A program made the position numbers and the translations under genes. From assembly GCA_049289815.1 (NCBI GenBank), contig JBATMK010000325.1, positions 848-64,847 on the forward strand: a DNA stretch of 64,000 nucleotides. Reading direction: 5' to 3'. Source of the DNA: Flavobacteriales bacterium. GTDB taxonomy: Bacteria; Bacteroidota; Bacteroidia; Flavobacteriales_F; PHOS-HE28. Below are positions 32,209-62,703 of this stretch, in pieces. How positions within the stretch are numbered: position 1 is the first letter of the stretch; every line of letters starts with the position of its first letter. Under the pieces are notes generated by a model. That model did no database searches and was not told the DNA's origin. It worked only from the letters and a program-made list of their open reading frames with translations.

Positions 32209-33338
32209 AGAAGCTGTTGATCGTGGTGGGCACGCGGCCCAACTTCATCAAGGTAACGCGGTTCAAGCAGGTGGCCATCGAACGCGGTGGCATCGATGTC
32301 CGGATCGTGCACACCGGCCAACACTTCAGCAGCAACATGGCCGATGTGTTCTTCACACAGTTCGGGCTTTCGCCGGATATCTTCCTGGAGATCGGTGCCG
32401 GAACGCCGCTGGGCCAGATGGCCGGCATCATGGAAAAGTTGGAGCCTGTGGCGCTACGCGAACAGCCCGATTTGATGATGGTGGTGGGCGACGTGAACAG
32501 CACGTTGGCCGCCGCCCTGGTAGCCAACAAGCTGGGCATACCGCTAGCGCACCTGGAAAGCGGCCTGCGCAGTTCCGACAACACGATGCCCGAAGAGCAC
32601 AACCGCGTGCTCACCGACCGGATCACCGATCACTTCTTCATCACAGAGCAGAGCGGGCTGGACAATCTTCGGAAGGAAGCGGTAGCCGTGGATCGGCTGC
32701 ACTTCGTGGGCAACACCATGATCGATACGCTGGTTGCTTTCGAGGAAGGTGTGATGGCCTCGCCGATCCTGGACGAGTTGAAGCTGGGAGCCGGAGGTCA
32801 CATTCTCATGACCATCCATCGGCCGGCCACTGTGGATGTCGAAGACCGATTGGGAGAGCTGCTCGACCTGATCGCGGAAGTCGCGGCAAAAAGGAAGGTC
32901 GTGTTCCCGATCCATCCCCGTACGGTGAAGAACCTGGAGCGCTTCGGACTGAAGCAGAAGGCGGAAGGGATCAAGGGCCTTGTGCTCACCGAGCCCTTGG
33001 ATTACTTCGCCTTCCAGAAGCTCATAGCCAGCTGCGCCTTCATCATCACCGACAGTGGCGGCATCCAGGAAGAAAGCACGTATCGCCGCGTTCCTTGCCT
33101 CACCCTGCGCCCGAACACGGAGCGTCCCATCACGGTGACCATGGGTAGTAACGAACTCGTGCCTTTGGATATGAAAGCCGTGCGCAATGCGATCGCACGC
33201 ATTGAAGCCGGGACGTTCAAGAAAGGTGAAGTGCCGCCGCTTTGGGATGGAAAGGCGACGGAACGGATATTCGATGTTCTGGAGCGCGTACTGACCTCAC
33301 CCCCAGCCCCTCTCCCAAGGAGAGGGGGGCAGGCATGA
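32205..33338 (+). CDS. wecB: UDP-N-acetylglucosamine 2-epimerase (non-hydrolysing)
   Basis: MKKLLIVVGTRPNFIKV...MMVVGDVNSTLAAALVANKLGIPLAHLESGLRS...DSGGIQEES. Full-length, 377 aa. Confidence 0.85.
   Translation: MKKLLIVVGTRPNFIKVTRFKQVAIERGGIDVRIVHTGQHFSSNMADVFFTQFGLSPDIFLEIGAGTPLGQMAGIMEKLEPVALREQPDLMMVVGDVNSTLAAALVANKLGIPLAHLESGLRSSDNTMPEEHNRVLTDRITDHFFITEQSGLDNLRKEAVAVDRLHFVGNTMIDTLVAFEEGVMASPILDELKLGAGGHILMTIHRPATVDVEDRLGELLDLIAEVAAKRKVVFPIHPRTVKNLERFGLKQKAEGIKGLVLTEPLDYFAFQKLIASCAFIITDSGGIQEESTYRRVPCLTLRPNTERPITVTMGSNELVPLDMKAVRNAIARIEAGTFKKGEVPPLWDGKATERIFDVLERVLTSPPAPLPRRGGQA
33296..33320. repeat. Palindromic element CCCCTCTCC-caa-GGAGAGGGG (copy 1)
   Basis: A 9-bp perfect stem embedded in the last codons of wecB and the first codons of the next gene. 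A near-identical palindrome recurs at 55866..55890. Confidence 0.5.
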
Positions 33339-40219: not shown

Positions 40220-41277
40220 CCAATGGCAGTGAGCGGACCATGCGTGTGATCGGCATCAGCAACAAGACGCGCTACTGGCAGCACTACGCGTTCAGCAATC
40301 CGCCGGAGGGTTACCGTTACAGCCGCATGGCCGATGTGCCGTGGCATGTGTTGAAGGTGAGCAACCAGTTCCTTGCCCACACCAAATTGTTCCATCCGCT
40401 CAAGAAGGCGGACATCTTCCACACCTACAACAGCATCGTGGTGAACCACCGGCCGTGGGTGATCGAGGTGGAGAGCTACCTGCCACGGTACAAGCCGATG
40501 CCCGAGAGCCACCCGTTCTTCAAATGGGGCCTGCGGCGCTTGCGTAGCAAAGAGTGCAAGGCGTTGGTGTACACCAGCGAGAACACGGCGCGCATGAACC
40601 GTGATCGGCTGATCGAGCAGGGCGTGGATCCTGCCAAAATGCACGTGATCTATCGTGCCATTGAGCAGTACCTGCCCGGCGAGAAGGACAAGGAACGTTT
40701 CACGATCCTCTTCGCCGGCAACGGGTTCTACCGCAAGGGTGGCGTGGAATTGCTCAAGGCGTTCCAGCGGTTGGGGCGGGCCGATGCACGCCTGGTGATC
40801 GTGAGCACCCTGGAAGTGGATTGGGGCATCACGCCCTCGTTGGAGGACATTGCATATGTGGAGAAGACCATTGCCGAGGACAAGCGCATAACGCTGCACC
40901 GTGGCATGAGCCACGCTGCGTTGTTGCAGGAAATGCGCAAGGCGCATGTCTTCGTCAGCACCACGTTCGCCGACCCCTTCAACAACACGGTGCTGGAGGC
41001 CATGGGTGCACAGTTGCCTGTGATCAGCAGCGTCGTGAGTTCGATACCGGAAATGGTGGAACACGAGGGCAACGGCTGGTTGCTGCCGGTCAATGATCGC
41101 AGCAGCGATGCCATCGCCGGCGATATCACCGGCCACCTGCGACAGCTCATGGACGACCCTGCGCTTTTGCAACGCATGTGTGCGCGATCGCTGGCCATCA
41201 CACGGGAGAAGTTCGACCTGCGCGTACGCAATAGGCGTATGGTCGAACTCTACGACAAGGCTCTGGAAGGGAGGTAA
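40216..41277 (+). CDS. Glycosyltransferase family 4
   Basis: TTFADPFNNTVLEAMGAQLPVISSVVSSIPEMV EX7E motif. ATGA-type overlap with the upstream epimerase gene. Confidence 0.75.
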   Translation: MTNGSERTMRVIGISNKTRYWQHYAFSNPPEGYRYSRMADVPWHVLKVSNQFLAHTKLFHPLKKADIFHTYNSIVVNHRPWVIEVESYLPRYKPMPESHPFFKWGLRRLRSKECKALVYTSENTARMNRDRLIEQGVDPAKMHVIYRAIEQYLPGEKDKERFTILFAGNGFYRKGGVELLKAFQRLGRADARLVIVSTLEVDWGITPSLEDIAYVEKTIAEDKRITLHRGMSHAALLQEMRKAHVFVSTTFADPFNNTVLEAMGAQLPVISSVVSSIPEMVEHEGNGWLLPVNDRSSDAIAGDITGHLRQLMDDPALLQRMCARSLAITREKFDLRVRNRRMVELYDKALEGR

Positions 41278-41323
41278 GATCTGCGATCATGCCACTTCAA
41301 CCTTCCACACTGCACTTTCCAGT

Positions 41324-42100
41324 CTACCTATCGTAGCAACAGCGCAGTTTCCGGGGCACCGTATCGAACGCCGGACCAACGCTTGAATGGGTGCAGCTCG
41401 TGGCTCCGACCACACGCACCCCGCCGGGGCCGTTCCCGGTATTGTTGGTCCACTCCCATTGGTTGCCCATGTTCTGCAAGCCGATCATGCCGGCCTGCGT
41501 GCAGGCGAAATACCATTCGCCCCAAGTGCATACACGCGCATCGAGGTTGCCGCACAGAACGGATGCGGCATCCAGGTACAGTGTATCATGGGATACCGGC
41601 TCAATGCAGTACAGTTCGTTCACCTGCACGAAGCCCGTAGGGCAGGCGCGGCGTTCCACCCTGCGCGCGTTCGTGAGGTGGAAGACGGTGCCATCGAACA
41701 CCAAACCGGCCACCATGCCGGGTTGCAGATCGCCGGCCTGCAGATCGAGCGATCCGTTCTTGAGCACCGGATAAGGACCGCTGCCGTCCACACTGATCGT
41801 AACGGCGCCAGTGTTCGCAGCCGTGATCTTCACCAGCACGTTCGTACCCGCGATCGGCACGGTCAGGGCTGGGGTGAGGAATATGGACAGCACATCGCTG
41901 CCGGTGGCTAACGCGTAACTGTAAGCTCCTGCTTGCAATGTGCCCGCGCCCAGGGCATGATCCGACGCGGCGCCATCGGGAAGCCCGGCCACATGCCTAT
42001 CGGCGGCCGCGCCGGTGAGGATGATCGGTGCGTCGATGGAAACCTGCGCCGTTGATCGCAATGTGCCGATTGCCAGCAGGAGCAGGAGCGCGTGCTTCAT
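41324..42100 (-). CDS. Secreted protein with a conserved Cys-rich C-terminal domain ending RCCY (tandem paralogue 1)
   Basis: Signal peptide MKHALLLLLAIGTLRSTAQ. N-terminal beta-rich domain of about 130 aa, then CPTGFVQVNELYC...LCGNLDARVCTWGEWYFAC...NQWEW...RCCYDR. Start refined to 42100. Confidence 0.55.
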   Translation of the reverse strand: MKHALLLLLAIGTLRSTAQVSIDAPIILTGAAADRHVAGLPDGAASDHALGAGTLQAGAYSYALATGSDVLSIFLTPALTVPIAGTNVLVKITAANTGAVTISVDGSGPYPVLKNGSLDLQAGDLQPGMVAGLVFDGTVFHLTNARRVERRACPTGFVQVNELYCIEPVSHDTLYLDAASVLCGNLDARVCTWGEWYFACTQAGMIGLQNMGNQWEWTNNTGNGPGGVRVVGATSCTHSSVGPAFDTVPRKLRCCYDR

Positions 42101-42876
42101 CACCGGAGTTGATAACAGCAGCGCGTGGTGCCCAGGTCGGTGGTGGTGGCCGAGATGTTGAACATGCTCTTGCAGGTCCAACGCCCGATCTGGTCCACCG
42201 AATGCGTATGATCGCTCGTGTCGTCGATCCACTCCCAGTTGTTGAACAGGCCCGCTAGCTGCCCCTGCAAAGCCTGGCAAGTGAAGAGGTATTCATCCCA
42301 AGTACACAGCGCCGCGCCGCGTTCGGCACAATACTGGGCTGCGGCGAACCAGTTGAGCGCCGGCCCTTCCCCCTGCATGATGCACAACCTGGCGTTCGCT
42401 TGCAAGTAGCCATCGGGGCAACCAGTGGGTTCGGATCCCAGCAGGATGAACATGCTATCGGCGTATTGCGCTTCAGCCGGCAGGCCGGAGCGCAGGGCGC
42501 TCACCGGCAAGGATAGGCCAGTGCGATCGCGCAGCGGCACGGGCCCCAGGCCGTCCAGGTCGAGCGTTACCGCAGCCGTGTTGGAAGCCGTGGGTATCCA
42601 CCGCACACGCAATCCGTTGGTGTATGCCAGGGTGGCCGGTTGCAGGGTGAGGAGGACCGCGTTGGCACCTCCACTGGTAAGGGCCCATGCAAGACTTCCG
42701 CCCTGGGCGGCTCCCAGGGTCACCAGGTTATTGAGCGAAGTGGCCGGTGCGAGGCCATCGATCCGGCGATCTGTGGGATCCGCCCCGGTGAGCACCAATG
42801 GTTTGTCCAGGTTGACTTGCCCGAACGCGAGGTGTGCGATCAGCGCTGCTGGACCGATGATCAGCGCGCGCCTCAT
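42100..42876 (-). CDS. Secreted Cys-rich C-terminal domain protein (tandem paralogue 2)
   Basis: MRRALIIGPAALIAHLAFGQ signal peptide. CPDGYLQANARLC...YCAERGAALCTWDEYLFTC...NNWEW...TRCCYQLR. Start refined to 42876. Confidence 0.55.
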   Translation of the reverse strand: MRRALIIGPAALIAHLAFGQVNLDKPLVLTGADPTDRRIDGLAPATSLNNLVTLGAAQGGSLAWALTSGGANAVLLTLQPATLAYTNGLRVRWIPTASNTAAVTLDLDGLGPVPLRDRTGLSLPVSALRSGLPAEAQYADSMFILLGSEPTGCPDGYLQANARLCIMQGEGPALNWFAAAQYCAERGAALCTWDEYLFTCQALQGQLAGLFNNWEWIDDTSDHTHSVDQIGRWTCKSMFNISATTTDLGTTRCCYQLR

Positions 42877-43649
42877 TTGTTGTAGCAGCAACGGAAGTTG
42901 TTCGTGCCCAACGGGACCTGGGTCCCACCGCCATAGCAATCGGGGTTCATCGTTCCGGTTGTCAGGCCTGCGCGCTTTCCATGGTTGATGTCGTTGGCAG
43001 CACTATCGACCCATTCATACTCCACAATGCTGTTGACGAAACCGCCCGGCATGCTGCAACCCCGGAACCAATCGGCCCAACCGCACAAGCGCAAGCCGCG
43101 CAAACCGCATTGGCTCACAGCATTGTACCACGATGTGGGCCCATAGGGCACTGCCTCTGCGCACACCTCCCGGCTTACGTCCAGGAAACCCGGAGGGCAC
43201 GCGATACCGGTTTGCGAGAGCAGTTGGAAAGCGGCGCCATCATACACCAGCAGGACTGGAATGCCGGGTCGCAGATCCGCGCTGTCGAGCTGTTCCGTAG
43301 TGAATTTCAGTACCGGCACAGCACCAAGCCCATCCACGTTCAAGGTGGTCGGTGCCGTATTGGCAACGCTGGGCGTAATGCTCAGCAGCATGCCTGCGGT
43401 GTAACCGGTGATAGCGGGGACCAGGACAGCAGTGAGCGCATCGGTGCCTTGTGCCACGGCATAGGTGGTGCTTTGCGTGCGCACGCTCGCTGCGTTCGCC
43501 CCGTGATCGGCGGCGGTGGGCAAGGCAAGGCCCATCAATTGGCGATCCGCAGGAGTGGCACCATCCAAGACCACAGGCACCGGCAAATCCCATTGTGCGT
43601 TCGCGGCGACGCACGCGAGAACGGCGAGAACGGTGAGTGAATGCTTCAT
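42873..43649 (-). CDS. Secreted Cys-rich C-terminal domain protein (tandem paralogue 3)
   Basis: MKHSLTVLAVLACVAANAQ signal peptide. CPPGFLDVSREVC...QCGLRGLRLCGWADWFRGC...EYEWV...FRCCYNK. Confidence 0.55.
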   Translation of the reverse strand: MKHSLTVLAVLACVAANAQWDLPVPVVLDGATPADRQLMGLALPTAADHGANAASVRTQSTTYAVAQGTDALTAVLVPAITGYTAGMLLSITPSVANTAPTTLNVDGLGAVPVLKFTTEQLDSADLRPGIPVLLVYDGAAFQLLSQTGIACPPGFLDVSREVCAEAVPYGPTSWYNAVSQCGLRGLRLCGWADWFRGCSMPGGFVNSIVEYEWVDSAANDINHGKRAGLTTGTMNPDCYGGGTQVPLGTNNFRCCYNK

Positions 43650-44518
43650 GGTTTCACGAAGCGCAGTTGATGTGTGCCGTTCACCAATACGGCATAGGCC
43701 CCCGGCGACAACATTGAAATGTCAATGACAGCGTTGGTGGTGGATGCGGAGCCCGAGTACACGATCCGGCCGCGCGCATCGAACACCTGGAACGGGCCGA
43801 TCCGTGTTGCGCCATGCACTGTAACAGTTCCGGTGGCCACGGTAGGGAACAGGTGGAAACCATCGCGACCGACCAACACCGCTACATCGGAGATCACCGC
43901 ATCATCGAAGAGGGTGAACCAGCCCAAACTGTCGGGCAGGGTTGCCGTAGCCGTGTGTGCGCCGAGATCGATCGTGCTGCCGAGCTCCGGCCACCAAGTG
44001 CCACCAGTGCCACTGCGCGCCATGCGCAGGGCGGCTTCAGGGATCCCGTTCAGTTCGGTAAGGTCGAAGAACAACACGCCACTTGCACCAAGCGCTTGCA
44101 CCGCTCCGGATCTCACGCGGTACCAACGTGCGATGCTCTCCACAGCGAGGTTGTTGATGCGCGGCAGATGTCCGCGCTCCACAATGAAACTGTCGGGCGC
44201 AAGAGCAGTGGTGAAGCTGAAACCGAGCCCGGCCGGTTCGGTGAAAGTGAGCGGTGCACTGTAGAGGCGGGAAGTGATCTCGGTACCTGCACCGGTAATG
44301 GGCGCACCCGCTTGCTCATCCAGTTCCGCTTGCGGGCCGAAGACGATACGGCCATCGTTCACCATGTATGATCCAGCCTCAACAGTGAAGCTGACCGGCG
44401 CTTCGATGTGAAGGGTCGTGCCATTGCTCACGGCCAATGACGTGCCCTGATGCAAGACCATCTGGCCTTGGCAAGTCATAGAGACCACTGCAATGCAAGA
44501 AAGAAGGGCCCGCTTCAT
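43646..44518 (-). CDS. T9SS type-A C-terminal sorting domain protein (secreted cargo)
   Basis: Signal peptide MKRALLSCIAVVSMTCQGQ. The C-terminal roughly 80 aa (..IVYSGSASTTNAVIDISMLSPGAYAVLVNGTHQLRFVKP) matches the Por-secretion tail. ATGA overlap with paralogue 3. Start refined to 44518. Confidence 0.6.
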   Translation of the reverse strand: MKRALLSCIAVVSMTCQGQMVLHQGTSLAVSNGTTLHIEAPVSFTVEAGSYMVNDGRIVFGPQAELDEQAGAPITGAGTEITSRLYSAPLTFTEPAGLGFSFTTALAPDSFIVERGHLPRINNLAVESIARWYRVRSGAVQALGASGVLFFDLTELNGIPEAALRMARSGTGGTWWPELGSTIDLGAHTATATLPDSLGWFTLFDDAVISDVAVLVGRDGFHLFPTVATGTVTVHGATRIGPFQVFDARGRIVYSGSASTTNAVIDISMLSPGAYAVLVNGTHQLRFVKP

Positions 44519-44602
44519 TAGGAGGCCGAAAATAGCCCTGCCAGCACCTTTCCACCAAACGCCCCCGGCTACTTTTGGCCGCCTTCGAGCAACAAGGCTC
44601 TC

Positions 44603-45001
44603 ATGGACCTGAAAGCACTTCTGTACGATCAGCTCGGCCACTTCACGGTTGCGGACATTGCCATGATCCTCTTCGGCATGTTCGCCGCTGCATTGCTGGC
44701 CTGGCTGGCAGGTTTCATCGGCAGGGCGGTTGAAGGTGAGAGACGGCAGATGGCCTTGTTGGCGTGTGCGATCGCATTCGCTGTTTCCATCGTACGTGCC
44801 TCACTTCCGCTATCCGTGGCGTTGCTGGCCTCAGCGCTTTTCCTCCGGTCACCCATGAGCGAGGGCGGCTGGAAGCCTTTCGCACTGCGCGCGGTAACGC
44901 TGGCCATCGGTATCGGCTGCGGTGCCAGTGCTGCGTTGATCACCGTGGTACCGGCGGTGCTTCTCGCATTCCTACTGCGGTGGGCCAATAGCCGTTCCTG
45001 A
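44603..45001 (+). CDS. Small hydrophobic membrane protein (hypothetical)
   Basis: 132 aa with 3-4 predicted TM helices. Directly upstream of the CotH gene. No recognised motif. Confidence 0.3.
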   Translation: MDLKALLYDQLGHFTVADIAMILFGMFAAALLAWLAGFIGRAVEGERRQMALLACAIAFAVSIVRASLPLSVALLASALFLRSPMSEGGWKPFALRAVTLAIGIGCGASAALITVVPAVLLAFLLRWANSRS

Positions 45002-45006
45002 CGCTG

Positions 45007-46494
45007 ATGATGACGCGCATTTGGAACGTCCCGGCGGCGCTGTTCATCGGTTCGGCCGTGTGCTTCCTGCTTGCTGCGGCGCTACGGCCGGGATCGGTGG
45101 CGGGCTCGGAGCAACTGGCCCGGTATGGCAGGGTGGAGGATCTGCTGTATGCGCCAACCGCACTGCAATGGCGTCGGCCGATGGGCGACTTTCCTTGGGC
45201 GATGTTCACAACGGGACCCGTGCGTACGCAGCCGCCACGGGTCCATAGCCGGCTTGCTGTGGTCTCGTTGGTATTGCCTTACGATCACCTCTTCGATCCG
45301 GAGCATGGTCTTTACACCGTTGGCCATGCGATCCTTCACGATGCAGACCGCGTGGCCCTGAAGTACCTGCGCGAACCACGTTGGTGGAAGTATCCCGGCA
45401 ACTACTTGTTCCGCGGCAAGGAATGGGAGCGGAGCGCCAACATCGAGATCTTCGATGGCAACGGTGAACCGGTGTGCAACGAGCCGGTCGGCATCCGCAT
45501 CAACGGCAACACCACGCGCGGCTTCCCGCAAAAGGCGCTGCGCGTTTCCTTCTTTCCCGGGGCAGGGGGAGGACAAGCCATACGCCTCTTTGGCGATGAT
45601 GCGCGACACTATGACGAGATCGTCCTGCGGGCCAGCGGGAACGACCAGGACCGCACCATGTTCCGGGATGCGGTGCAGCACCGGCTGTGCGAAGCGCTTC
45701 CCTTCGACGTGAGCCGTGCCGTGCAGAGCGTGGTGTACATCAATGGTGCGTACTGGGGCATCCACAACATACGCGAACGGGTGGAGGACGATGAGCTGGC
45801 CATCCGATATGGGTTGAAGAAGAACAACATCGTGGTTTTGGCCGATCGTGCATTGCCATACCGCGGCGATGATGATGGTGTGGAAGCGAAGCGTTTCAAG
45901 ATGTGGTTGAAGCGGATGGAGCGGATGGATCCGCAGGCAGGGATGCTGCAGGATTCGATCGCCGCCGTTGTGGATCCCGAGGGGTTCCTGCACTACATGG
46001 CCGCACAGATCATTTTCGGCAACACCGATTGGCCGGACCAGAACGTGAAATTCTGGAGGTTCACCGGCAAGGCCGATACGGCGAACGCGAAGACCGATGG
46101 TCGTTGGCGCTTCATCATGGGCGATAGCGACCTGAGCTTCGGATATGCCGAACTACCCGCCGACGCGTACCCGGACATGTTCGCGCATTTGGAGCGCAAA
46201 CAAGGCCCGGTGGCCCGGTTGTTCCGTTGTTGTATGCGGTCACCGGAAATGGAAGCGCGGTTCGGCGTTATCCTGCGGCAGCTCTTGGACGGGTCGTTAT
46301 CGGGACAGCGCATGGAAAGCATGGTGCACGAGATGGCCCGCAACATCGACGCGGAGATGCATCGGCAGGTGCGCCGTTGGCGCCGACCACGGGATCACGC
46401 GGTCTGGCAGAGCCATGTGCACCATATGGTCACCTTTGCGCGGGGCCGCTCCACCGTGGTGTGGGGTCAATGGCAGGCCTGGCAGCAGCACTGA
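45007..46494 (+). CDS. CotH-family protein (atypical kinase fold)
   Basis: CotH-like blocks: VGIRINGNTTRGFPQKALRVSF, DRTMFRDAVQHRLCEALPF...VVYINGAYWGIHNIRERVE, IFGNTDWPDQNVKFWRF, IMGDSDLSFG. Confidence 0.55.
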   Translation: MMTRIWNVPAALFIGSAVCFLLAAALRPGSVAGSEQLARYGRVEDLLYAPTALQWRRPMGDFPWAMFTTGPVRTQPPRVHSRLAVVSLVLPYDHLFDPEHGLYTVGHAILHDADRVALKYLREPRWWKYPGNYLFRGKEWERSANIEIFDGNGEPVCNEPVGIRINGNTTRGFPQKALRVSFFPGAGGGQAIRLFGDDARHYDEIVLRASGNDQDRTMFRDAVQHRLCEALPFDVSRAVQSVVYINGAYWGIHNIRERVEDDELAIRYGLKKNNIVVLADRALPYRGDDDGVEAKRFKMWLKRMERMDPQAGMLQDSIAAVVDPEGFLHYMAAQIIFGNTDWPDQNVKFWRFTGKADTANAKTDGRWRFIMGDSDLSFGYAELPADAYPDMFAHLERKQGPVARLFRCCMRSPEMEARFGVILRQLLDGSLSGQRMESMVHEMARNIDAEMHRQVRRWRRPRDHAVWQSHVHHMVTFARGRSTVVWGQWQAWQQH

Positions 46495-46500
46495 ACCGCC

Positions 46501-47871
46501 ATGATCGCCTTCGTCCGCGAATACCTGCAGTTCTTCTTGATCATACTGGTGTGGGTGGTGACAACCATCTACCTGGGTCCGCTGATCTATTTGATCATGC
46601 CGGCCACCTTTTTCATGTTCCGTGCGCAGGGTAAGTACCAAGAGATAGTGATGGGCTTCCTGATCGTGCTGATCATGTCGGACATCGATCCGGATATGAT
46701 CGCAATGGGTCCGGTGAAGGAGGCGAAGAACTTCGTGATGCTCACCCTGGCGATCATCTTCTTCATGGAGCGCCCGAAATTCGAGCCGCTCAGTGGCATC
46801 TTCCCGATCTTCCTTCCGTTCTTCGTCTATTCCATTTTCCCGCTCATCTTCAGTGGCCGGATCGTGGTGGCCTCACAGAAGACGCTGAGCTACGCATTGC
46901 TGTTCCTGTTGGTGCCGAATTGGTTCCTCCTGAACTTCCGGTTGTACAAGTGGGACTTCGTGCGTAACCTCATCTACTTCATCTGCCTGGTTTTGTTGGT
47001 GGCACCGCTGATCGGCCAGATCGAGCGCTGGTACACCATCATCGATGGCCGGTACCGTGGTGTGTTCGGCAACCCCAACGGATTGGGCATTTTCTGCTTC
47101 CTCAGCTTCCTGGTGGTGGCCGTGGCGGAGCACATCAACAAAGAGCTCTTCCCCAGCAGGATCATGCGCTACCTCGTGTACGGCATCATCCTGCTCAACC
47201 TGATCCGGTGCGGGTCGCGCACCGGCCTCACCGCCACCTTGCTGTTCCTGGTCTTCTCCCGGTTCTTCAGCGTTTCCCCCTTCATCGGCTTCATCATCTT
47301 CCTCTTGTTCGTCGCGGGTTTGCACTACCTCACGAGCAACCTGGCCCACATCGTCATCTCGCTCGGGTTGCAGGACTTCATGCGGGTGGATACGCTGGAG
47401 GATGGGAGCGGCCGCTACTTCGCATGGGCCTTCGCCTGGGAGAAGATCCAGGACTATTTCCTGTTGGGCGGTGGTTTCGGTAACGATGAGTATGTGATGC
47501 GGCAGCACTACGTGTATCTGCGTTCGATGGGCCACCACGGCGGGGTGCACAACAGTTACCTCACCATGTGGTTCAATGTGGGCATCATCGGACTGGGTAT
47601 CTATCTGCGCAGCCTGTTCGTCACCTTCGTGAAAGCGAGCAAGCTCACACCCATCGCCTTCGCGGTGCTCTTCGCCATCCTGTTCAGCGCGCTGTATGAA
47701 AGCTGGCTCAACGGCTCGTTGAACCCCTTCACCATCCTGGTGGTGATCGTAATGACCATGATCAGCGAGGAGGAAGTGGCCCACTGGCGTGAATACGAAG
47801 TGGACGCTCTCCAGCAGGATGAAGTTGAAGCCCTTGAGCCAGCACCCGTGTTGATCCTGCCGGCCCGATAG
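46501..47871 (+). CDS. O-antigen ligase / polymerase family membrane protein (Wzy/WaaL-like)
   Basis: 456 aa, about 10-12 TM helices, with a large loop carrying the conserved region RCGSRTGLTATLLFLVFS...LGGGFGNDEY typical of Wzy_C domains. Confidence 0.6.
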   Translation: MIAFVREYLQFFLIILVWVVTTIYLGPLIYLIMPATFFMFRAQGKYQEIVMGFLIVLIMSDIDPDMIAMGPVKEAKNFVMLTLAIIFFMERPKFEPLSGIFPIFLPFFVYSIFPLIFSGRIVVASQKTLSYALLFLLVPNWFLLNFRLYKWDFVRNLIYFICLVLLVAPLIGQIERWYTIIDGRYRGVFGNPNGLGIFCFLSFLVVAVAEHINKELFPSRIMRYLVYGIILLNLIRCGSRTGLTATLLFLVFSRFFSVSPFIGFIIFLLFVAGLHYLTSNLAHIVISLGLQDFMRVDTLEDGSGRYFAWAFAWEKIQDYFLLGGGFGNDEYVMRQHYVYLRSMGHHGGVHNSYLTMWFNVGIIGLGIYLRSLFVTFVKASKLTPIAFAVLFAILFSALYESWLNGSLNPFTILVVIVMTMISEEEVAHWREYEVDALQQDEVEALEPAPVLILPAR

Positions 47872-47958: not shown

Positions 47959-49383
47959 ATGCTCTTCAACTCGTTCGCGTTCATCGTCTTCCTGCCGCTG
48001 GTCTTTCTCGGTTACTGGTGGTTGTTCGGCCGCTCCTTGCGCGGGCAGAACCTGTTCATCATTGCCGCCAGCTACCTGTTCTACGGGTGGTGGGACTGGC
48101 GCTACCTGATCCTGCTCTTCGTCAGTTCGTTCACCGATTACTGGCTGGGGATCTACATCGACAGCAACGAGGACCAACGCAAACGCAAGCGGGCCCTCAT
48201 CCTGAGCCTGGTGTTCAACCTGGGCATCCTGGGCTTCTTCAAGTACTTCAACTTCTTCATCGACAGTTTCGCCGACCTGCTGCGTTCGGTGGGTTTCCAG
48301 CCCAACATGTGGAGTTTGCGGGTGATCCTTCCGGTGGGCGTGAGCTTCTACACGTTCCAATCGCTCAGCTATACCATCGAGGCGTATAGGCGCAACTTCA
48401 AACCGGCCCGCGACCCGATCGCCTATCTCGCGTTCGTCAGCTTTTTCCCGCACATGGTGGCCGGCCCCATCATGCGGGCGGTCGACCTGTTGCCGCAGTT
48501 CCAGCGCCTGCGCACCTTCGATATGGCGAAGGCCCGCGACGGTGCGCGCCAGATGCTCTGGGGCTTCTTCAAGAAGATCGCCATCGCCGATCCCTGTGCA
48601 TGGATGGTGAACCGCATCTTCGATATGGACCCGGCACAAACGCCCGGCATCACGCTGTTCTTCGGTGCCGTCTTCTTCGCCTTCCAGATCTACGGCGATT
48701 TCAGCGGCTACTCCGATATCGCCATCGGTTGCGCGCGCTTCTTCGGCATCGACCTGATGCGCAACTTCAACTACCCGTATTTCTCGCGCAGCATCGGCGA
48801 GTTCTGGCGCCGCTGGCACATCAGCCTCAGTACGTGGTTCCGCGATTTCCTCTATGTTCCTTTGGGCGGGAGCCGTGTGCCGCGGGGGCGACACATCCTC
48901 AATCTCATGATCACCTTCACCATCAGCGGCCTCTGGCACGGCGCCAACTGGACTTTCGTGACGTGGGGCGCCTTGAACGGCGCGTACTACGTGCCTGAAG
49001 TGCTCTCCGGCACCAAGGAACGCATCGGGCACCCGATGTTGCGCGACCTGCCGCGCATCCTCTTCACGTTCGTACTGGTCACCCTCACTTGGGTGTTCTT
49101 CCGATCGGTTTCGATCCACGATGCCTTCGCTTACCTGCGCTACACGTTCGCGAACATCGGTTCGCATCCTGGCGCTGCTCTGGTGTGGCTGCAAAGCCAA
49201 CAGGCGCTGTTGGTGGGTGTGCTGTTGGTGGTGGAATGGATCCGCCGTCGGCGCCAGCACCCATTGGAGGATATTCACTTCCACGTGGCCGTTCGCTGGA
49301 TGATCTACCTGGTGATCGCCCTCGTGGTGCTCTACAAGCTGAACGTTGATGCCGAGAACGAGTTCATCTATTTCCAGTTCTGA
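47959..49383 (+). CDS. MBOAT family O-acyltransferase (second copy, AlgI/DltB-like)
   Basis: Paralogue of 28166..29599 (MLFNSFAF..., FWRRWHISLSTWFRDFLYVPLGGSR, GLWHGANW). About 50% identical by eye. Confidence 0.85.
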   Translation: MLFNSFAFIVFLPLVFLGYWWLFGRSLRGQNLFIIAASYLFYGWWDWRYLILLFVSSFTDYWLGIYIDSNEDQRKRKRALILSLVFNLGILGFFKYFNFFIDSFADLLRSVGFQPNMWSLRVILPVGVSFYTFQSLSYTIEAYRRNFKPARDPIAYLAFVSFFPHMVAGPIMRAVDLLPQFQRLRTFDMAKARDGARQMLWGFFKKIAIADPCAWMVNRIFDMDPAQTPGITLFFGAVFFAFQIYGDFSGYSDIAIGCARFFGIDLMRNFNYPYFSRSIGEFWRRWHISLSTWFRDFLYVPLGGSRVPRGRHILNLMITFTISGLWHGANWTFVTWGALNGAYYVPEVLSGTKERIGHPMLRDLPRILFTFVLVTLTWVFFRSVSIHDAFAYLRYTFANIGSHPGAALVWLQSQQALLVGVLLVVEWIRRRRQHPLEDIHFHVAVRWMIYLVIALVVLYKLNVDAENEFIYFQF

Positions 49384-50354: not shown

Positions 50355-52859
50355 ATGAAGAAGCGTTGGAAGATCCTGCTGGCCGTGGTGCTGCTCGTGG
50401 GTGCTGGTGCCTGGTACGGGAACCGCAAGCTGAAGGCCGTAGGGCATCCGGGCCTCGGCACCTTCATCGGTCAGTGGTGGAACAATTGGCCGAAGAGTTT
50501 CGCCATGGATCCGCCGGTGATCGAGCTGCAGGTGAACGACGAGGGCATGGCGCAGTTGGAAGCCGTGGTCGATTCAGCGCGTCGGCGCGGTGTGATCATG
50601 CCCGAAGGCAACGGCTACGTGAAGGCGAAGTTCACCGTGGATGGTGTGGAGGCCAAGTGCAAGCTGCGGATCAAGGGTAAGCTCAGCGACCATGTGCAGG
50701 GTGCGAAGTGGAGTTTCAGGGTGATCGCGAAAGGCGGTGGCGGATTCCTCGGCATGAAGCGGTTCAGCCTGCAGCATCCGGGCACGCGCAATTATCTGTG
50801 CGATTGGTTCTATCACCAGCTCAGCAAGGGTGAAGGCATCGTGGCGTTGCGCTACGGCTTTTGCAAAGTCTCACTGAACGGCGATGACCTCGGCGTATAT
50901 GCCTACGAGGAACACTTCGGTCCCGAGCTGTTGGAGAACAACGGCCGGCTCAAGGGACCGCTGGTGCGTTTCGATCCGGGGCTCTATTGGGTGCACAGGC
51001 TCAACGGCATGGAGGGCCGCGACTTCGAGGAAGCCTATGCCGACTACCAGGCTGCCGCGCTCGATGCCTTCGACAGCGAGGAACTGGTGAACGATCCCCA
51101 ACAAATGCGCTACTTCCAGCAGGCGCTTGCCCTCGTGAACGGTTTCCGTCGAGGAGAATTGACCGCTGCGCAGGTCTTCGATCTCCGGAAGATGGCCAAG
51201 CGCCATGCGATCATCGATCTGGTGGGTGGCCACCACAGCATGGATTGGAGCGACGTGAAGTTCTACTTCGATCCTGTGGCGCAACGCTTGGAGCCGGTGA
51301 GCTACGAGAGCTTCAGCGCCTTCCCCACAACGAAACTCGCGGGAGCAGGAAAGTTCTCTGGGAATGACAATGCTGGCGCCGAACTGCACGATGCGCTGTT
51401 CAACGATGCCGGCTTCTTTGCGGCCTATGTGCACGAATTGGAGCATGTGAGCCGCAAGGCCTACCTCGACAGCACGTTCATGGCGATCGCCGGTGCGCTC
51501 GATACCGCGAGCGCCACACTCTATGGTGAGTTCCCTTACAAGGAGCTCGACCGGTCGATCTACTACAGGAACCAGGACATCATACGGCGCTCATTGGATG
51601 TGCCCAAGGCGGCGCACGTGTACTTGCAGGGGCATCTGGGCGATCACACCGTGTTGAAGTTGGTGCCGCTCAACAGCCTGCCTGTGGAAGTGGACGCGCT
51701 GAAGCTTGGCGACGGAAGTCTGGTGGAACCGTTACAGCGCACCATCGTACCCGCTCGTCGTGCAGGTGGTTTGGGAACACCGGTCCTCGCGGAATTCCTG
51801 ATGGCCAAGCCGCTCGATACGCTCTCGGCAAAGATCTCGTTGTTGTGCCGGGTGCTCGGTTCTTCCAAGGTGTTGGAGACGGGGATCTTCCCTGAAGCCT
51901 TGCAGGAACCAGGGGCCATGGATGCCCTGCTTGCGTTCGAAGAACCGAACGTTGCGCACTTCAACTTCCTCGTTGTTGACGATAGTGCACGCACGATCCA
52001 CTTCAGGTCGGGCAAATGGAATCTCGCGGAGACCTTGGTGATCCCCGCGGGTTACATGGTGCATGGGTCGGCCCCGCTCGAAGTCGACCTGTCGAACGGC
52101 GCAGCTATCATCAGCTATTCGCCGCTCGCATTGACCGGAAATGAGGAGTCCCACATCCGTGTGTTCAGCAGCGACAGTTCGTCGCATGGTGTGCATGTTA
52201 TCGAAGCGCCGGCCCGCAGCAGCCTTGCCTTCGTGGACTTCGTTCACCTTGGCCGGTTCGCCGAGGATCAGGTTGTGAGCGGGGATGTGTCCTTCCACAA
52301 GACCACGGTGGAGATAACACAATGTTCCTTCTCCGGCAGGGCGAACACCTTGCTCGATGTCTCGGTGGGAAGCGCTTCCCTTGTCGGATGCTCCTTCACC
52401 GGAGGCAGCGATCAACTGGAATTGCATCATGTGCGTGGGAAGCTCCGTTCGGCGCGCTTCAATGGCGCGGCCGACGATGCCTTGAGTGTCGAAGGCGGAG
52501 TTTTGGAGTTGCGCGATGTGGACGTTGCAGACGCAGTGGGGATCGCAGTGAAGGCCACGGCGGGGGCTGATGTCACAGGAACGGACATCCATGTCGTGGG
52601 CGTGGGCCAAGGTGTCGAAGCAAGGACCGGAAGCACAGTGAAGCTTACTGGCGGCAACATGGAGGCGGAACACGTCGGTGCCGAGACCGGCAAGGCCAGC
52701 ATGCGCGATGGTGCTGCACGCGTGGTCCTGGAGAAGGTGACATTGCGGGTGAAAGAGAAGGCCACCCTATGTGGCGAGGGCAGCAGCTTGGTGATCGATG
52801 GAAAGGAGATGTGTGCGCCTGTTGCGAAAAAGTCAGAACCACAAGCTGGGAACGAATGA
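50355..52859 (+). CDS. CotH-family kinase-fold protein with a C-terminal right-handed beta-helix (pectate-lyase-like) repeat domain
   Basis: N-terminal TM/signal, then CotH blocks (KLRIKGKLSDHVQGAKWSFRV; YLCDWFYHQLSKGEGIVALRYGFCKVSLNGDDLGVYAYEEHF; GGHHSMDWSDVKFYFDPV). The C-terminal roughly 250 aa consists of parallel beta-helix repeats (...VSVGSASLVGCSFTGGSDQLELHHVRG...). Confidence 0.6.
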   Translation: MKKRWKILLAVVLLVGAGAWYGNRKLKAVGHPGLGTFIGQWWNNWPKSFAMDPPVIELQVNDEGMAQLEAVVDSARRRGVIMPEGNGYVKAKFTVDGVEAKCKLRIKGKLSDHVQGAKWSFRVIAKGGGGFLGMKRFSLQHPGTRNYLCDWFYHQLSKGEGIVALRYGFCKVSLNGDDLGVYAYEEHFGPELLENNGRLKGPLVRFDPGLYWVHRLNGMEGRDFEEAYADYQAAALDAFDSEELVNDPQQMRYFQQALALVNGFRRGELTAAQVFDLRKMAKRHAIIDLVGGHHSMDWSDVKFYFDPVAQRLEPVSYESFSAFPTTKLAGAGKFSGNDNAGAELHDALFNDAGFFAAYVHELEHVSRKAYLDSTFMAIAGALDTASATLYGEFPYKELDRSIYYRNQDIIRRSLDVPKAAHVYLQGHLGDHTVLKLVPLNSLPVEVDALKLGDGSLVEPLQRTIVPARRAGGLGTPVLAEFLMAKPLDTLSAKISLLCRVLGSSKVLETGIFPEALQEPGAMDALLAFEEPNVAHFNFLVVDDSARTIHFRSGKWNLAETLVIPAGYMVHGSAPLEVDLSNGAAIISYSPLALTGNEESHIRVFSSDSSSHGVHVIEAPARSSLAFVDFVHLGRFAEDQVVSGDVSFHKTTVEITQCSFSGRANTLLDVSVGSASLVGCSFTGGSDQLELHHVRGKLRSARFNGAADDALSVEGGVLELRDVDVADAVGIAVKATAGADVTGTDIHVVGVGQGVEARTGSTVKLTGGNMEAEHVGAETGKASMRDGAARVVLEKVTLRVKEKATLCGEGSSLVIDGKEMCAPVAKKSEPQAGNE

Positions 52860-54879: not shown

Positions 54880-55707
54880 TCAGCGAACGACCATCAACCG
54901 CTGCGCGCCGATCGGCTGTCCGGCAACATGGAGCTGATAGAGATACGTTCCTGCCGCCAGCTCCTCGGTGCTTATCCGTGCTTGACCGGAGTGTTCAACA
55001 CCAATCCGAAAGACCTGCTGGCCGCGGTTGTTGAAGAAGAGGATATCACCGGAGTTGGAACCAGCGGGCAGCTCGTACTGGATCACAGTGCTATTGTCCG
55101 AAGGGTTCGGATACGCCTGCATGCTCCATCCTCCGGGTTGGGCGAAATGATCACCTCCGCCCGTGATCAGTGAGCCTGAACAGTCGTCACAGGGTAGATG
55201 GCCGGGAAGCTGGTAGATGGTGCTCTGCGAAGCATTGGTGGTGATCATATATGTTCCCGAATCCGTGGTGAAGATGGGCTCGTTGATACTGCCTATTCCC
55301 AACCCCACTCCAAGGGCGCCACCCAAGACCGTGAGCAAGGCTGAACCGGTCTCATCGATGACCTGCAAAGCGTATTGTGTTGGAGGGCCCGGGTTGGTGT
55401 CCACGAGGTTCGCAATGAATTCGATCGTGCTTGGATCGGTATCGAAGAGAGCTTCGGTGATGTACTGGAAGTAATTGGAAAATTCGAAGCCGGGCAATGG
55501 TGTCAAGGGGATGGACCGGAACAGCGTGAGGTCGGGGTCGTAGATGTTGAGCGCGGTCGGGGTCTGCTCAACGAACTTGACGCCGTTGGTTTCCAATGCG
55601 ACCGCAGCGTAATACGTGTTCGGTGCTTGACCCAGAACCGTGATCTGGGCATTGAGCACGGAGGCACAGGAACAGAACAGGACGAGGCATGCAATGCGAG
55701 GGTTCAT
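54880..55707 (-). CDS. T9SS type-A C-terminal sorting domain secreted protein
   Basis: Signal peptide MNPRIACLVLFCSCASVLNAQ. C-terminal Por-secretion tail (..NSTVIQYELPAGSNSGDILFFNNRGQQVF...GTYLYQLHVAGQPIGAQRLMVVR). Confidence 0.6.
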   Translation of the reverse strand: MNPRIACLVLFCSCASVLNAQITVLGQAPNTYYAAVALETNGVKFVEQTPTALNIYDPDLTLFRSIPLTPLPGFEFSNYFQYITEALFDTDPSTIEFIANLVDTNPGPPTQYALQVIDETGSALLTVLGGALGVGLGIGSINEPIFTTDSGTYMITTNASQSTIYQLPGHLPCDDCSGSLITGGGDHFAQPGGWSMQAYPNPSDNSTVIQYELPAGSNSGDILFFNNRGQQVFRIGVEHSGQARISTEELAAGTYLYQLHVAGQPIGAQRLMVVR

Positions 55708-55865: not shown

Positions 55866-55890
55866 AGCCCTTCTCCTTGGGAGAAGGGTT
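55866..55890. repeat. Palindromic element CCCTTCTCC-ttg-GGAGAAGGG + TTT (copy 2 of the 33296 element; terminator-like)
   Basis: The reverse complement ACCCTTCTCCCAAGGAGAAGGGC matches CCCCTCTCCCAAGGAGAGGGG at 33296..33320 at 19 of 21 positions. Confidence 0.5.
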
Positions 55891-55900
55891 TGGGATGAGG

Positions 55901-56866
55901 TCAGAACTTCGCCCGGCTCTTCCGGCCGATGCGCTTCTTGCCACGCACCCAGCTGTAACGCTGGCGGTAGAAGTTCGACTGCCCCTTCAATACGTAGCTG
56001 TATGTCAGCGTCATGGTGAGGTAGCTGTCGTTGTGCGTGGGATCGCCACGTATGTTGTCCAAGCCATCGCTGCGTTCTTCCCAGCCATATTGGTACTGGT
56101 CAGGCAAGCTGTTGTCATTGGCCCATGCCGCTGCGCTCTGGTCATACATATCGAAGGCCAATCCACCTACGCCACCAGGCAACAATTCCGGGTTCACGTA
56201 CACCGTGCTGGCATCGTCCAGGTAATCGGTGAAGGTGGTACGCCAGCCGAAGTCCCAACCGATGCGATGGCGGCGCTTGAAGGTGAAATGGAAGCCGAGG
56301 CCGGCCGGGATCGCGAACCCGATCGGGCTGTAGTTGGCCAATTCGGTATCCAGCGGTCGCAAGGACACCCAATCGCCATTGGAAACGTTGGGTGTATCCT
56401 GGCCAACGAACTTGCCTTTCGGGTTGTGGTAGAACACCGCAGCGCCCACGTAGGCGAACAACCGGAAGTCGGCGCGGTACCGTCCGCGGCCCCCGATGTC
56501 GTTGTCGGCATAAATGGTGAACTCCGGCCGCACGTACAACTCGAACATGTCGTTGCGGAAATTCAGGTTGCGGCCGCGGCGCGGGCGGTAGATCGTAAGG
56601 TCATCGTTGCCTTGGATACGCAGGTACATCAAGCCGGCATTGATGCTGATGAACCGGTTGATCTTGCGGCGGGCGAAGATCCCGAATGCCCAGCGGGTCT
56701 GGCTCAACTTCAGGTCGTAGATGAAATCGCGGCGTGGTTTGTCCTTGCCGCCCATCTCACCCAGGTAGTTGGCGGCACCGGCATGTATGCCGATGTCCCA
56801 AGCGTACTGGGCGTTCGCGGTAGCCGTCAGCAGAACGGCAACGATCAGGACGTACAGCTTTCTCAT
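55901..56866 (-). CDS. Outer-membrane beta-barrel protein (porin-like)
   Basis: Signal peptide MRKLYVLIVAVLLTATANAQ. Alternating amphipathic beta-strands. C-terminal aromatic residue (..RAKF). Confidence 0.5.
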   Translation of the reverse strand: MRKLYVLIVAVLLTATANAQYAWDIGIHAGAANYLGEMGGKDKPRRDFIYDLKLSQTRWAFGIFARRKINRFISINAGLMYLRIQGNDDLTIYRPRRGRNLNFRNDMFELYVRPEFTIYADNDIGGRGRYRADFRLFAYVGAAVFYHNPKGKFVGQDTPNVSNGDWVSLRPLDTELANYSPIGFAIPAGLGFHFTFKRRHRIGWDFGWRTTFTDYLDDASTVYVNPELLPGGVGGLAFDMYDQSAAAWANDNSLPDQYQYGWEERSDGLDNIRGDPTHNDSYLTMTLTYSYVLKGQSNFYRQRYSWVRGKKRIGRKSRAKF

Positions 56867-57977: not shown

Positions 57978-58029
57978 TGGCAACAAGCCGACCTTTGCGA
58001 GCGTCTGCCATGTGGCAACGATCCGGCCG

Positions 58030-62499: not shown

Positions 62500-62703
62500 A
62501 AGCCTGTTGTTTTGATATGGAAAGGTAGGTGGCCGGTGTTTGCGCGCGCGACTTACACCGGTCATCGGCCTTCGATCTTTTTAACTGCGGTGCGCCCTGC
62601 GGCCCGCAAGCGATCCCGGTTAGATTTGGCACCCTTTTGCAAGCCCCCGTCCACAGTGAGCGTGGGGGCTGATCCCCGAACAACGACTCAACCCCTACTC
62701 GAG

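Follow-up and report, generated by a model that had tools for sequence, protein, structure and literature searches.

Phage receptor-binding tips and the MAT fibres of the predator Bdellovibrio bacteriovorus present a tip at the distal end of a fibre, and they serve here as the model for three short proteins from a Flavobacteriales bacterium. The MAT protein Bd2740 carries a trimeric C-type-lectin-like (CLec) domain without a Ca site, which is comparable to Mtd, the only CLec named as sharing its trimerisation face; the predator displays MAT fibres on its surface, and Bd2740 was localised to the vesicle left in prey (PMC10769870). Mtd, which we compare by description, is the trimeric CLec-fold tip at the fibre end of Bordetella phage BPP-1. 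In the tail fibre gp47 of the Pseudomonas phage Pa193, a Pbunavirus, three 4-stranded sheets make up the trimeric bead (PMC11042391).

The three proteins, here called A, B and C, are encoded next to a T9SS cargo gene in a 64,000-nt stretch of DNA (hereafter the window; contig JBATMK010000325.1, positions 848 to 64,847) and are a novel form of phage-derived bacterial fibre adhesin (Table 1). A preliminary description of this DNA had listed three consecutive minus-strand genes of 258 to 259 aa that overlap by 1 to 4 nt and are co-oriented and overlapping with a T9SS-sorted neighbor, and both points hold: the coordinates agree (a GTG at 42103 is an alternative start for C, giving 259 aa), A and B overlap by 4 nt (ATGA), B and C by 1 nt, and the cargo gene, for which orthologue alignment favors the ATG at 44518 as the start, overlaps A by 4 nt. 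These start/stop overlaps along T9-A-B-C are compatible with translational coupling. The same description had placed the genes directly downstream of a glycan island, but they sit within this surface-polysaccharide island, as Wzy_C, CotH, MBOAT, epimerase and GT genes are also present beyond the other side of the triplet. For the 132-aa hydrophobic protein, Pfam and PHROG searches returned no match.

Table 1. Coordinates in the window of the A-B-C genes, their parts and the adjoining core genes
Feature	Position	Strand	Remarks
Paralogue C, 258 aa	41324-42100	minus	Signal peptide aa 1-18; N-segment and bead aa 19-151; C-type-lectin-like domain (CTLD) aa 152-258
C, CTLD	41327-41647	minus	
C, N-segment and bead	41648-42046	minus	
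C, signal peptide	42047-42100	minus	
Paralogue B, 258 aa	42100-42876	minus	Signal peptide aa 1-19; N-segment and bead aa 20-151; CTLD aa 152-258
B, CTLD	42103-42423	minus	
B, N-segment and bead	42424-42819	minus	
B, signal peptide	42820-42876	minus	
Paralogue A, 258 aa	42873-43649	minus	Signal peptide aa 1-18; N-segment and bead aa 19-149; C-type-lectin-like tip aa 150-258
A, stop codon	42873-42875	minus	
A, tip	42876-43202	minus	
A, N-segment and tail-fibre bead	43203-43595	minus	
A, signal peptide	43596-43649	minus	
T9SS cargo gene, 290 aa	43646-44518	minus	First gene of the operon; type A sorting domain
Hydrophobic protein, 132 aa	44603-45001	plus	Probably membrane; divergent from the operon; opens the conserved partner arm
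CotH-family protein, 495 aa	45007-46494	plus	PF08757, E 4.9e-40; N-terminal hydrophobic anchor; core member, conserved synteny
Wzy_C-family protein, 456 aa	46501-47871	plus	PF04932, E 3e-12; O-antigen ligase/polymerase-like; core member, conserved synteny

At the protein level, A, B and C are 30 to 33% identical over their full length (pairwise BLASTP, E 1e-33 to 1e-41, far beyond chance), and comparison at the DNA level found no similarity. We surveyed the family in about 55 species-level Flavobacteriales MAGs, comprising 174 members at 55 loci. Eight Cys columns (residues 151, 163, 181, 189, 198, 238, 254 and 255 in A) are invariant in all 174 members and follow the pattern CPxG...C, W/F..A...C and a terminal RCC, which at the level of sequence is compatible with the CTLD framework of a hairpin pair C0-C0' (long form, N-terminal) and an alpha1 Cys that pairs with one in the last strand; R253-C254-C255 is invariant, the next Tyr is common but not universal, and the sporadic extra Cys across the family have no pairing pattern. 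Six or more conserved Cys and an ...RCCY end had been described before; the RCC and the other motifs quoted then are present, the conserved Cys number eight, the Tyr has to be dropped as a universal feature, and a failure of the Cys pattern in orthologues, which had been named as the objection, does not occur. The eight invariant Cys are consistent with an oxidizing compartment. The shared signal peptides reported earlier are seen in A, B and C as well as in the T9SS cargo protein, each followed in orthologue alignments by a near-invariant Gln; Gln directly after the signal peptide is the "Q-rule" of Bacteroidetes (PMC5837995, PMC10653852). Judging from their sequences, A, B and C are Sec-exported proteins of about 240 aa in mature form that obey this rule. 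They carry no outer-membrane targeting signal (no CTD, no lipobox) and may be retained in the periplasm.

The N-terminal module of A, B and C is a single shaft bead as found in the tail fibres of Pbunavirus-type phages, with bead III of Pa193 gp47 (PDB 9B45) as its counterpart. A profile search matched gp47 (9b45_2, gp47 residues 220-325) with E 3.9e-13, and the AF2 model of A (pLDDT 86.5) matched the same chain in Foldseek with E 7e-7 and 30% identity; structure matches to tail fibres in BFVD reached down to E 1.8e-13. All three paralogues matched phrog_4900 (tail protein; E 8.7e-8 for C), a match limited to profile positions 235-325 of 964, and B also matched phrog_28171. The bead further matches 296 phage records annotated as tail fibre, at up to 48% identity, and long metagenomic fibre proteins carry the module 3 to 14 times. 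The preliminary description was right about a beta-rich module of about 130 aa and its motifs and had overlooked that it is a phage tail-fibre bead. In contrast to gp47, a cytoplasmic protein of 962 aa with a baseplate-binding N-terminus and another distal end, A, B and C have a single bead and a CLec tip fused behind a Sec signal peptide and are encoded in a cellular operon, without a phage structural module; the signal peptide stands where a baseplate-attachment domain would be. The bead fold has been solved only as part of a homotrimer, and by homology to it trimerization becomes the chief expectation for how A, B and C work.

The C-terminal 110 or so residues form a compact CTLD without a Ca site. 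Among solved structures, it is most closely related to the Bd2740 CLec tip (8OKS), which was matched by two profile searches (E 2.3e-4 and 7.7e-5) and by Foldseek with the AF2 model (E 6e-4, TMt 0.70). Foldseek gave a probability of 1.0 to the MGL CRD (6puv), NKR-P1, CD72 and Bd2740 at TMt 0.55 to 0.70, the CTLD part of the model (pLDDT mostly 83 to 95) has the two-helix, two-sheet CTLD fold, and weak profile matches connected the tip to PLA2R and FGE. The fold search by profile and AlphaFold that had been proposed as a check thus returned a CTLD tip, in line with the C-type-lectin-like fold suspected earlier, together with the phage-fibre bead; that the proteins belong to no named family also stands, with no Pfam or NCBIfam family covering them. 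The EPN/QPD and WND motifs for Ca2+ and sugar are absent from the family alignments, and the stretch from the EW(V/I/T)(D/N) strand to the terminal RCC spans just about 37 residues. The tip does not qualify as a Ca2+-dependent lectin and therefore need not bind carbohydrate.

Like A, B and C, Bd2740 is a bacterial protein assembled from phage-like fibre parts, and its tip, likewise a compact CLec, lacks a Ca site; five of the Cys positions in this tip align with theirs (CxxG...C, C...GxxLC...C), and a sixth falls at a Cys position of B and C. However, Bd2740 has 627 aa, including the N-terminal anchor domain that is invariant in MAT proteins and a shaft that is long and trimeric, whereas the proteins described here consist of signal peptide, bead and tip; MAT shafts span about 600 to 1100 aa with or without an S74 chaperone, whereas A, B and C have one bead within 258 aa and no S74 domain by Pfam. 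(The PDB name of 8OKS, "Peptidase S74 domain-containing protein," is the annotation of the full-length protein.) Moreover, MAT genes are dispersed singles of a predator, whereas in a non-predator Flavobacteriales clade A-B-C is a fixed triplet whose linkage extends to a T9SS cargo gene as well as to a glycan locus.

In P. gingivalis and T. forsythia, the tethering of T9SS cargo to glycolipid is established. The cargo protein of our locus has a signal peptide that ends in ...CQG before the Gln, a beta-rich N-terminal domain of about 200 aa and a type A CTD, the Ig-like sorting domain of about 70 aa, at approximately aa 220-290. This assignment is supported by TIGR04183 (25.1 bits against a cutoff of 23), by Pfam Por_Secre_tail (PF18962; E 4.5e-5, slightly below the gathering score) and by a profile match to the CTD of lipase 7pzj (E 5.5e-6). 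In the AF2 model (pLDDT 81), PDB matches are confined to the CTD (mirolase 8qb1, RemA 8gl6_D), and the PDB structure search found no recognizable fold relative of the N-terminal domain that would speak for a role in docking. A type A CTD was found in the cargo protein alone: Pfam and TIGR searches and the model showed no T9SS CTD in A, B or C, whose C-terminus is the CTLD. The cargo gene adjoins the triplet in about 46 of the 51 loci that include upstream sequence (some 90%), the loci in which it is not adjacent being L013, L046/L047 and L050.

Across the family, A, B and C are ancient orthogroups in a fixed A-B-C order and not a recent expansion. UPGMA clusters coincide with gene position, with 41 to 42% identity within groups and 26 to 29% between them, and orthogroups B and C always occupy the second and third positions. 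Loci that are not cut by a contig end and hold no degraded copies always read A-B-C or A-B-C-A-B-C; intact sets of 1, 2, 4 or 5 copies were never seen among the uncut loci, which hold 3 or 6 copies, the middle copies being degraded in one of them, L060. Within hexads, the A pair, the B pair and the C pair are equally diverged (38 to 45%), and the mean distances of the three orthogroups are 1.02, 1.04 and 1.03. Nearly all neighboring family genes overlap by 4 nt. The triplet belongs to a conserved core of seven genes, in which Wzy_C, CotH and the small membrane protein run one way and T9-A-B-C the opposite way, and an orthologue of the 132-aa protein occupies the same place in nearly all loci.

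On balance, we consider it somewhat probable that A, B and C form short trimeric knobs of lectin type, which may be A:B:C heterotrimers, acting with a T9SS-anchored partner in a Wzy_C-CotH envelope-glycan module. The proteins would fold and oxidize in the periplasm and assemble there as short trimeric knobs with the lectin-like face distal, trimerization being expected from the homology of both domains to trimeric solved relatives. It is tempting to speculate that the short N-terminal segment serves to dock the knob on the T9SS cargo protein, that this cargo is exported and tethered to a cell-surface glycolipid, and that the cell might thereby display a glycan- or protein-binding knob. Alternatively, the knob may bind the polymer made by the neighboring Wzy_C/CotH genes.

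The absence of sets of 1, 2, 4 or 5 copies, the duplication of whole triplets only and the equal rates suggest that the three chains act as one unit, which would most simply be an A:B:C heterotrimer. Covariation of rates is modest (partial r of 0.49 for B-C, 0.24 for A-B and 0.29 for A-C). The stricter version, in which an obligate A:B:C heterotrimer reaches the surface by docking in the periplasm on the co-translated T9SS cargo and travels with it, is put forward tentatively and is rather doubtful; a brief literature search found no reported case of a partner co-exported with T9SS cargo. If true, the fibre tip would be unusual in being heteromeric, and the T9SS would provide an example of co-export. 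In complement C1q, chains A, B and C come from adjacent genes and form a 1:1:1 heterotrimer in which a globular head for recognition sits on a fibrous stalk. The likeness to our locus is an analogy only, resting on three paralogous adjacent genes, with the heterotrimer here a proposal; C1q is eukaryotic and its folds (collagen and gC1q/TNF) are unrelated.

It is possible, though unlikely, that A, B and C are instead three separate homotrimeric lectin knobs, each with its own ligand, co-expressed as a fixed repertoire, an arrangement that can be likened to phages with several receptor-binding proteins. All solved relatives (Pa193 gp47, Bd2740) are homotrimeric, the three tips differ as strongly as the between-group identity indicates, and every orthogroup has its own conserved loop residues. 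However, independent binders would be expected to gain and lose members, whereas uncut, undegraded loci keep complete sets throughout, and both the equal evolutionary rates and the nearly universal 4-nt overlaps speak against independence.

Distinctly less probable is that the proteins stay in the periplasm as glycan-handling factors, binding the nascent polysaccharide or a glycolipid anchor from the adjacent Wzy_C/CotH/GT genes; a scaffold, an aid to chain length or export, or the attachment of T9SS cargo to glycan would be conceivable roles. Such a function would fit the lack of an outer-membrane targeting signal, the linkage to Wzy_C-CotH-TM132, which persists where the T9 gene is missing (e.g., L013), and the location of the triplet in a polysaccharide locus in every case, L046 included. 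Yet both domains derive from adhesin modules that lie distally and face outward in phage and MAT fibres, the cargo gene is linked in most loci, and no fibre-bead/CLec protein is known to us to take part in polysaccharide assembly.

The preliminary description had proposed a triplication of a secreted lectin with diversifying selection on the binding surface. The C-terminal loops are indeed where the paralogues diverge most, but a recent tandem event of this kind is very improbable, given that the duplication predates the split of about 55 species and that the orthologues form three position-specific clades. Within orthogroups, the CTLD is overall no more variable than the bead, with mean entropies of 1.84 versus 1.73 in A, 1.65 versus 2.01 in B and 1.64 versus 1.99 in C. 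A, B and C are under purifying selection: 10 of the 12 strain-level polymorphic sites are synonymous and the 2 non-synonymous ones both fall in a signal peptide. Outside that signal peptide, in the mature proteins, every change seen between strains is synonymous.

Slightly less credible still is the reading in which the triplet derives from a prophage, tailocin or contractile injection system, either as its remnant or as its cargo, and supplies tail-fibre genes for a particle encoded elsewhere. The N-terminal domain is a genuine phage tail-fibre module and the phage receptor-binding protein Mtd uses a CLec tip, but a Sec signal peptide is present in every member and takes the proteins out of the cytoplasm, where phage tails are assembled. 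In addition, they have one bead only and no baseplate-attachment domain, the genes with annotation in the window and in the +/-10 kb flanks include no phage genes, the neighbors are glycan genes in all loci, the tip was unmatched in 50,697 phage records, and purifying selection extends across 55 species.

A role as DGR variable proteins or as FGE-type enzymes can practically be dismissed, even though CLec/FGE is the usual target fold of DGRs, 3 of 49 members weakly matched FGE-sulfatase (best E 4.8e-4; SUMF1/2 at E 0.3-1) and C weakly matched the FGE-like part of SenA. FGE-sulfatase (PF03781) belongs to the same CLec-like superfamily and the weak local matches lie near the alpha1-beta2 "W..A...C...G..L," but the tip is less than half as long (about 110 versus 280 aa), scores far below all family cutoffs and stands in a non-enzymatic context, and is not a member. 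Mtd is diversified by a DGR with RT and TR/VR, elements that A, B and C lack: no template repeat involving 41324-43649 was found, the YxDD motif scan returned two ORFs only (an epimerase and a DUF6089 protein, neither an RT), and no RT domain occurs among the neighboring genes with Pfam calls. The earlier view that this is not a DGR is thus borne out by both checks and by the strains, which when near-identical differ at just 1 to 9 nt, without hypervariation.

The proteins encoded by the three paralogous genes A, B, and C have no covering Pfam or NCBIfam family, and a weak FGE-sulfatase match was obtained for only 3 of 49 relatives. A profile made from the alignment of these 49 relatives, compared with PDB sequences, returned two separate matches: residues 39 to 140 correspond to residues 220 to 325 of the tail fibre gp47 of Pseudomonas phage Pa193 (9B45; E = 3.9e-13), and residues 148 to 240 to the C-terminal domain of the Bdellovibrio protein Bd2740 (8OKS; E = 2.3e-4, improving to 7.7e-5 with a profile restricted to the C-type-lectin-like domain [CTLD]). 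We refer to the former, a phage tail-fibre shaft module, as the bead and to the latter as the tip. Weaker profile matches were to FGE/SUMF and to the CTLDs of the mannose receptor and PLA2R; the CTLD of B alone, used as a single-sequence query against the PDB, returned nothing beyond noise and weak langerin matches. In the HMM alignment, five family cysteines align with 8OKS and a sixth lies at the position of the B and C cysteine. An AlphaFold2 model of A (pLDDT, 86.5) agrees with both profile matches: Foldseek ranked 9B45 first in the PDB (E = 7e-7, 30% identity), followed by C-type lectin domains (MGL CRD, NKR-P1, CD72, and Bd2740; TMt up to 0.70). The 8OKS match and the Foldseek result bear out the C-type-lectin-like C-terminal domain proposed in the preliminary description, and the analysis provides about 170 "hypothetical proteins" with a structural identity. 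The bead of Pa193 gp47 is a trimeric unit (PMC11042391). Bd2740 is a mosaic adhesive trimer (MAT) fibre whose trimer interface is helix B, as it is in the phage receptor-binding protein Mtd; several MAT fibres have been shown on the predator surface, and Bd2740 itself localised to the vesicle left behind in the prey (PMC10769870).

The bead matches many tail-fibre proteins among predicted viral structures (E down to 1.8e-13) and, by tblastn, is present in 296 phage records with a tail-fibre annotation, at identities of up to 48% (Rhizobium phage RR1-B); A, B, and C all match phrog_4900, "tail protein." The tip had zero matches among 50,697 phage records. A protein search with the CTLD-only alignment yielded one weak match and missed the family itself, so that it has no bearing on how the tip is distributed. 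An exhaustive profile search yielded 27,548 proteins with an E value of ≤1e-3; the long proteins among the best 150 of these carry 3 to 14 beads and no such tip, and the combination of one bead with this tip is confined to the family of about 258 aa. One metagenomic relative (P0062) is a 486-aa single ORF with the order bead-tip-bead-tip; either two members have fused, or adjacent genes have been merged by a frameshift error. All named relatives belong to uncultured Flavobacteriales/Bacteroidota MAGs, and a scan of GTDB representatives found the family in 55 species-level genomes of an uncultured high-GC Flavobacteriales clade that stems mainly from metagenomes of wastewater treatment and lakes. 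The sole non-Bacteroidota matches of the genome scan, in Aliidongia sp. and Pseudomonas luteola, comprise the bead alone within ORFs of 410 and 730 aa and are probably prophage tail fibres.

Features of the window discussed in the text
Feature	Position	Strand	Length	Basis or remark
MBOAT-family paralogue	28166-29599	+
Inverted-repeat arm	33288-33327		40 nt
C	41324-42100	-	258 aa	ORF table and start-codon analysis
B	42100-42876	-	258 aa	ORF table and start-codon analysis
A	42873-43649	-	258 aa	ORF table and start-codon analysis
Sequon in A	43284-43292			Entry placed at A residues 120-122
T9 (T9SS cargo gene)	43646-44518	-	290 aa	ORF table and start-codon analysis
T9 start region	44461-44518			Differing gene calls
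TM132, CotH-family, and Wzy_C-family genes	44603-47871	+
MBOAT-family paralogue	47959-49383	+
Second CotH-like protein	50355-52859	+	834 aa
Small protein with T9SS type A CTD	54880-55707	-
Inverted-repeat arm	55868-55907		40 nt
Protein with CHU_C type B sorting domain	57937-60105	+	722 aa
Small protein with T9SS type A CTD	61729-62565	-		Match only via CTD part of T9 HMM

The three consecutive overlapping minus-strand genes of the preliminary description are present as such, with overlaps of 4 nt (A/B) and 1 nt (B/C), and T9 overlaps A by 4 nt. The proteins align end to end at 30 to 33% pairwise identity (BLASTP E values of 1e-33 to 1e-41), and no DNA-level repeat is common to the three genes. 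Among the related loci, neighbouring family genes nearly all overlap by 4 nt; the remainder show a 1-nt overlap or an offset of a few bases in either direction. Members were called by HMM in all loci; each one not cut by a contig end held exactly three or, in L027 and L052, six, with L060 as the single exception; in L048, the tail of a preceding set is visible. Among these four are genomes with two complete A-B-C sets in tandem, and in L060 the middle ones of the six copies are degraded into fragments, representing either pseudogenes or assembly errors. UPGMA clustering recovered three groups of 57, 54, and 51 members that coincide with gene position, with identities of 41 to 42% within and 26 to 29% between groups. 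In the A-B-C-A-B-C loci, the A pair, the B pair, and the C pair are equally diverged (38 to 45%), and the unit of duplication is therefore the triplet.

T9 ends in a type A T9SS sorting domain (TIGR04183 above cutoff; PF18962, E = 4.5e-5), which also matches known CTDs by profile and by structure; its N-terminal domain has no confident PDB relative by fold or by sequence. Public gene calls place the T9 start at ATGs inside the gene, which yields proteins of 271 or 277 aa and removes the signal peptide; orthologue alignment supports the ATG at 44518 as the likely start. A scan of positions 41100 to 44800 for promoters and terminators gave no signal above shuffled expectation. T9 adjoins the triplet in about 46 of the 51 loci for which upstream sequence is available. 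L013, L046/L047, and L050 have no T9 beside the triplet, whereas T9 follows the triplet in L053 and lies between the two triplets in L027. The divergent arm, consisting of TM132 (a 132-aa hydrophobic protein with no family match, probably a membrane protein) and the CotH-family and Wzy_C-family genes, occupies the same position in nearly all of about 50 loci and is followed by GT1, epimerase, and often MBOAT genes. Together, Wzy_C, CotH, TM132, T9, A, B, and C form a conserved seven-gene core and define an envelope module that can now be tested. The window as a whole is a large polysaccharide island with a Wzc-like kinase, GT2/GT4 glycosyltransferases, epimerases, two MBOATs, and two CotH-like genes.

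A, B, C, and T9 each carry a signal peptide, and the Gln after it is near-invariant; according to the Bacteroidetes Q-rule, this marks signal peptidase I substrates (PMC5837995, PMC10653852). A, B, and C have neither a lipobox nor a CTD; reading A as a lipoprotein was rejected on the former ground and because Cys13 of its signal peptide is not conserved. All 174 family members examined retain each of the eight tip cysteines.

Because both domains derive from obligate-trimer modules, we infer that A, B, and C trimerise; they would present the lectin-like face distally as a binding surface. The invariant set (L060 apart), its duplication only as a whole, and the identical mean evolutionary rates (1.02, 1.04, and 1.03 for A, B, and C) suggest that the three chains function jointly, the most economical arrangement being an A:B:C heterotrimer. 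Three separate homotrimers are a possible alternative, with which the modest rate covariation among the chains (partial r of 0.49 for B-C, 0.24 for A-B, and 0.29 for A-C) is also consistent; when T9, TM132, CotH, and Wzy were included, the modest B-C signal was the only one. Likewise, a co-occurrence test for inter-chain disulfides among the extra cysteines of B and C found sporadic positions and no pairing pattern, so that neither line separates the heterotrimer from homotrimers. As for export, T9SS cargo is tethered to a surface glycolipid in studied Bacteroidota, and it is tempting to speculate, as the most attractive option, that A/B/C might dock onto the co-translated T9 protein. A brief literature search found no reported precedent for co-export with a T9SS cargo, and the N-terminal domain of T9 has no informative relative bearing on docking. 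The main functional rival is that A/B/C act in the periplasm in a glycan-handling role. We regard the heterotrimer and its co-export via T9, taken jointly, as a tentative and rather doubtful reading. If the heterotrimer is true, it would form an asymmetric tip with three different binding faces, of interest to receptor-binding-protein engineers; we are not aware of a comparable heteromeric fibre tip. Similarly, if the knobs reach the surface through T9, this would constitute a T9SS export route for proteins lacking a CTD, which to our knowledge has not been described.

Phage tail-fibre parts are reused by cells, for example, in tailocins and Bdellovibrio MAT fibres, and we rate the A/B/C family as a phage-derived bacterial fibre adhesin. 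Its nearest known systems are MAT fibres and Pbunavirus tail fibres. It resembles MAT fibres in tip homology and in being a bacterial protein made of phage-fibre parts, but it is much shorter and lacks the S74 domain; it shares the bead with Pbunavirus fibres, but lacks their baseplate-binding N terminus and any phage context. Unlike true C-type lectins, the tip has no Ca/sugar motifs. What sets the family apart from other reused fibres is its minimal build (a single bead and a single lectin-like tip behind a signal peptide), a three-gene set fixed across a whole Flavobacteriales clade, and its wiring into a surface-glycan and T9SS context. No paper on the family or on the seven-gene module turned up in a literature search on related terms.

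A, B, and C are under purifying selection. Comparison of the window with four near-identical environmental contigs showed 12 distinct variable sites over the operon; 10 are synonymous, and the two non-synonymous ones both affect the B signal peptide. The tip is no more variable than the bead within orthogroups. Both observations contradict the earlier suggestion of diversifying selection on a binding surface, and the large differences among the three paralogues are ancient and have been stably preserved. A diversity-generating retroelement, already judged improbable in that description, is excluded because no template repeat was found and the only two YxDD-motif ORFs in the window, an epimerase and a DUF6089 protein, are not reverse transcriptases; the mostly synonymous strain variants argue likewise.

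Several minor features were observed. The Bacteroidetes O-glycosylation sequon D-[ST]-[AILVMT] occurs as D-S-A at residue 122 of A in 52 of 59 orthologues, within an almost invariant LDSADL loop (residues 121 to 126) that could be a glycosylation site, given the adjoining Wzy_C-family gene, or merely a structural loop; the sequons of B (35/59) and C (36/56) lie elsewhere and are only partly conserved. The two MBOAT-family paralogues, 19.8 kb apart, share blocks of 70 to 81% nucleotide identity, and each is followed by an ORF of about 320 to 337 aa without a family match. Finally, a 22.5-kb stretch containing the operon is flanked by an inverted repeat, 85% complementary, whose arms are palindromic (CCCCTCTCC...GGAGAGGGG); instead of marking the boundaries of an element, the arms might be shared terminator or REP-like hairpins.
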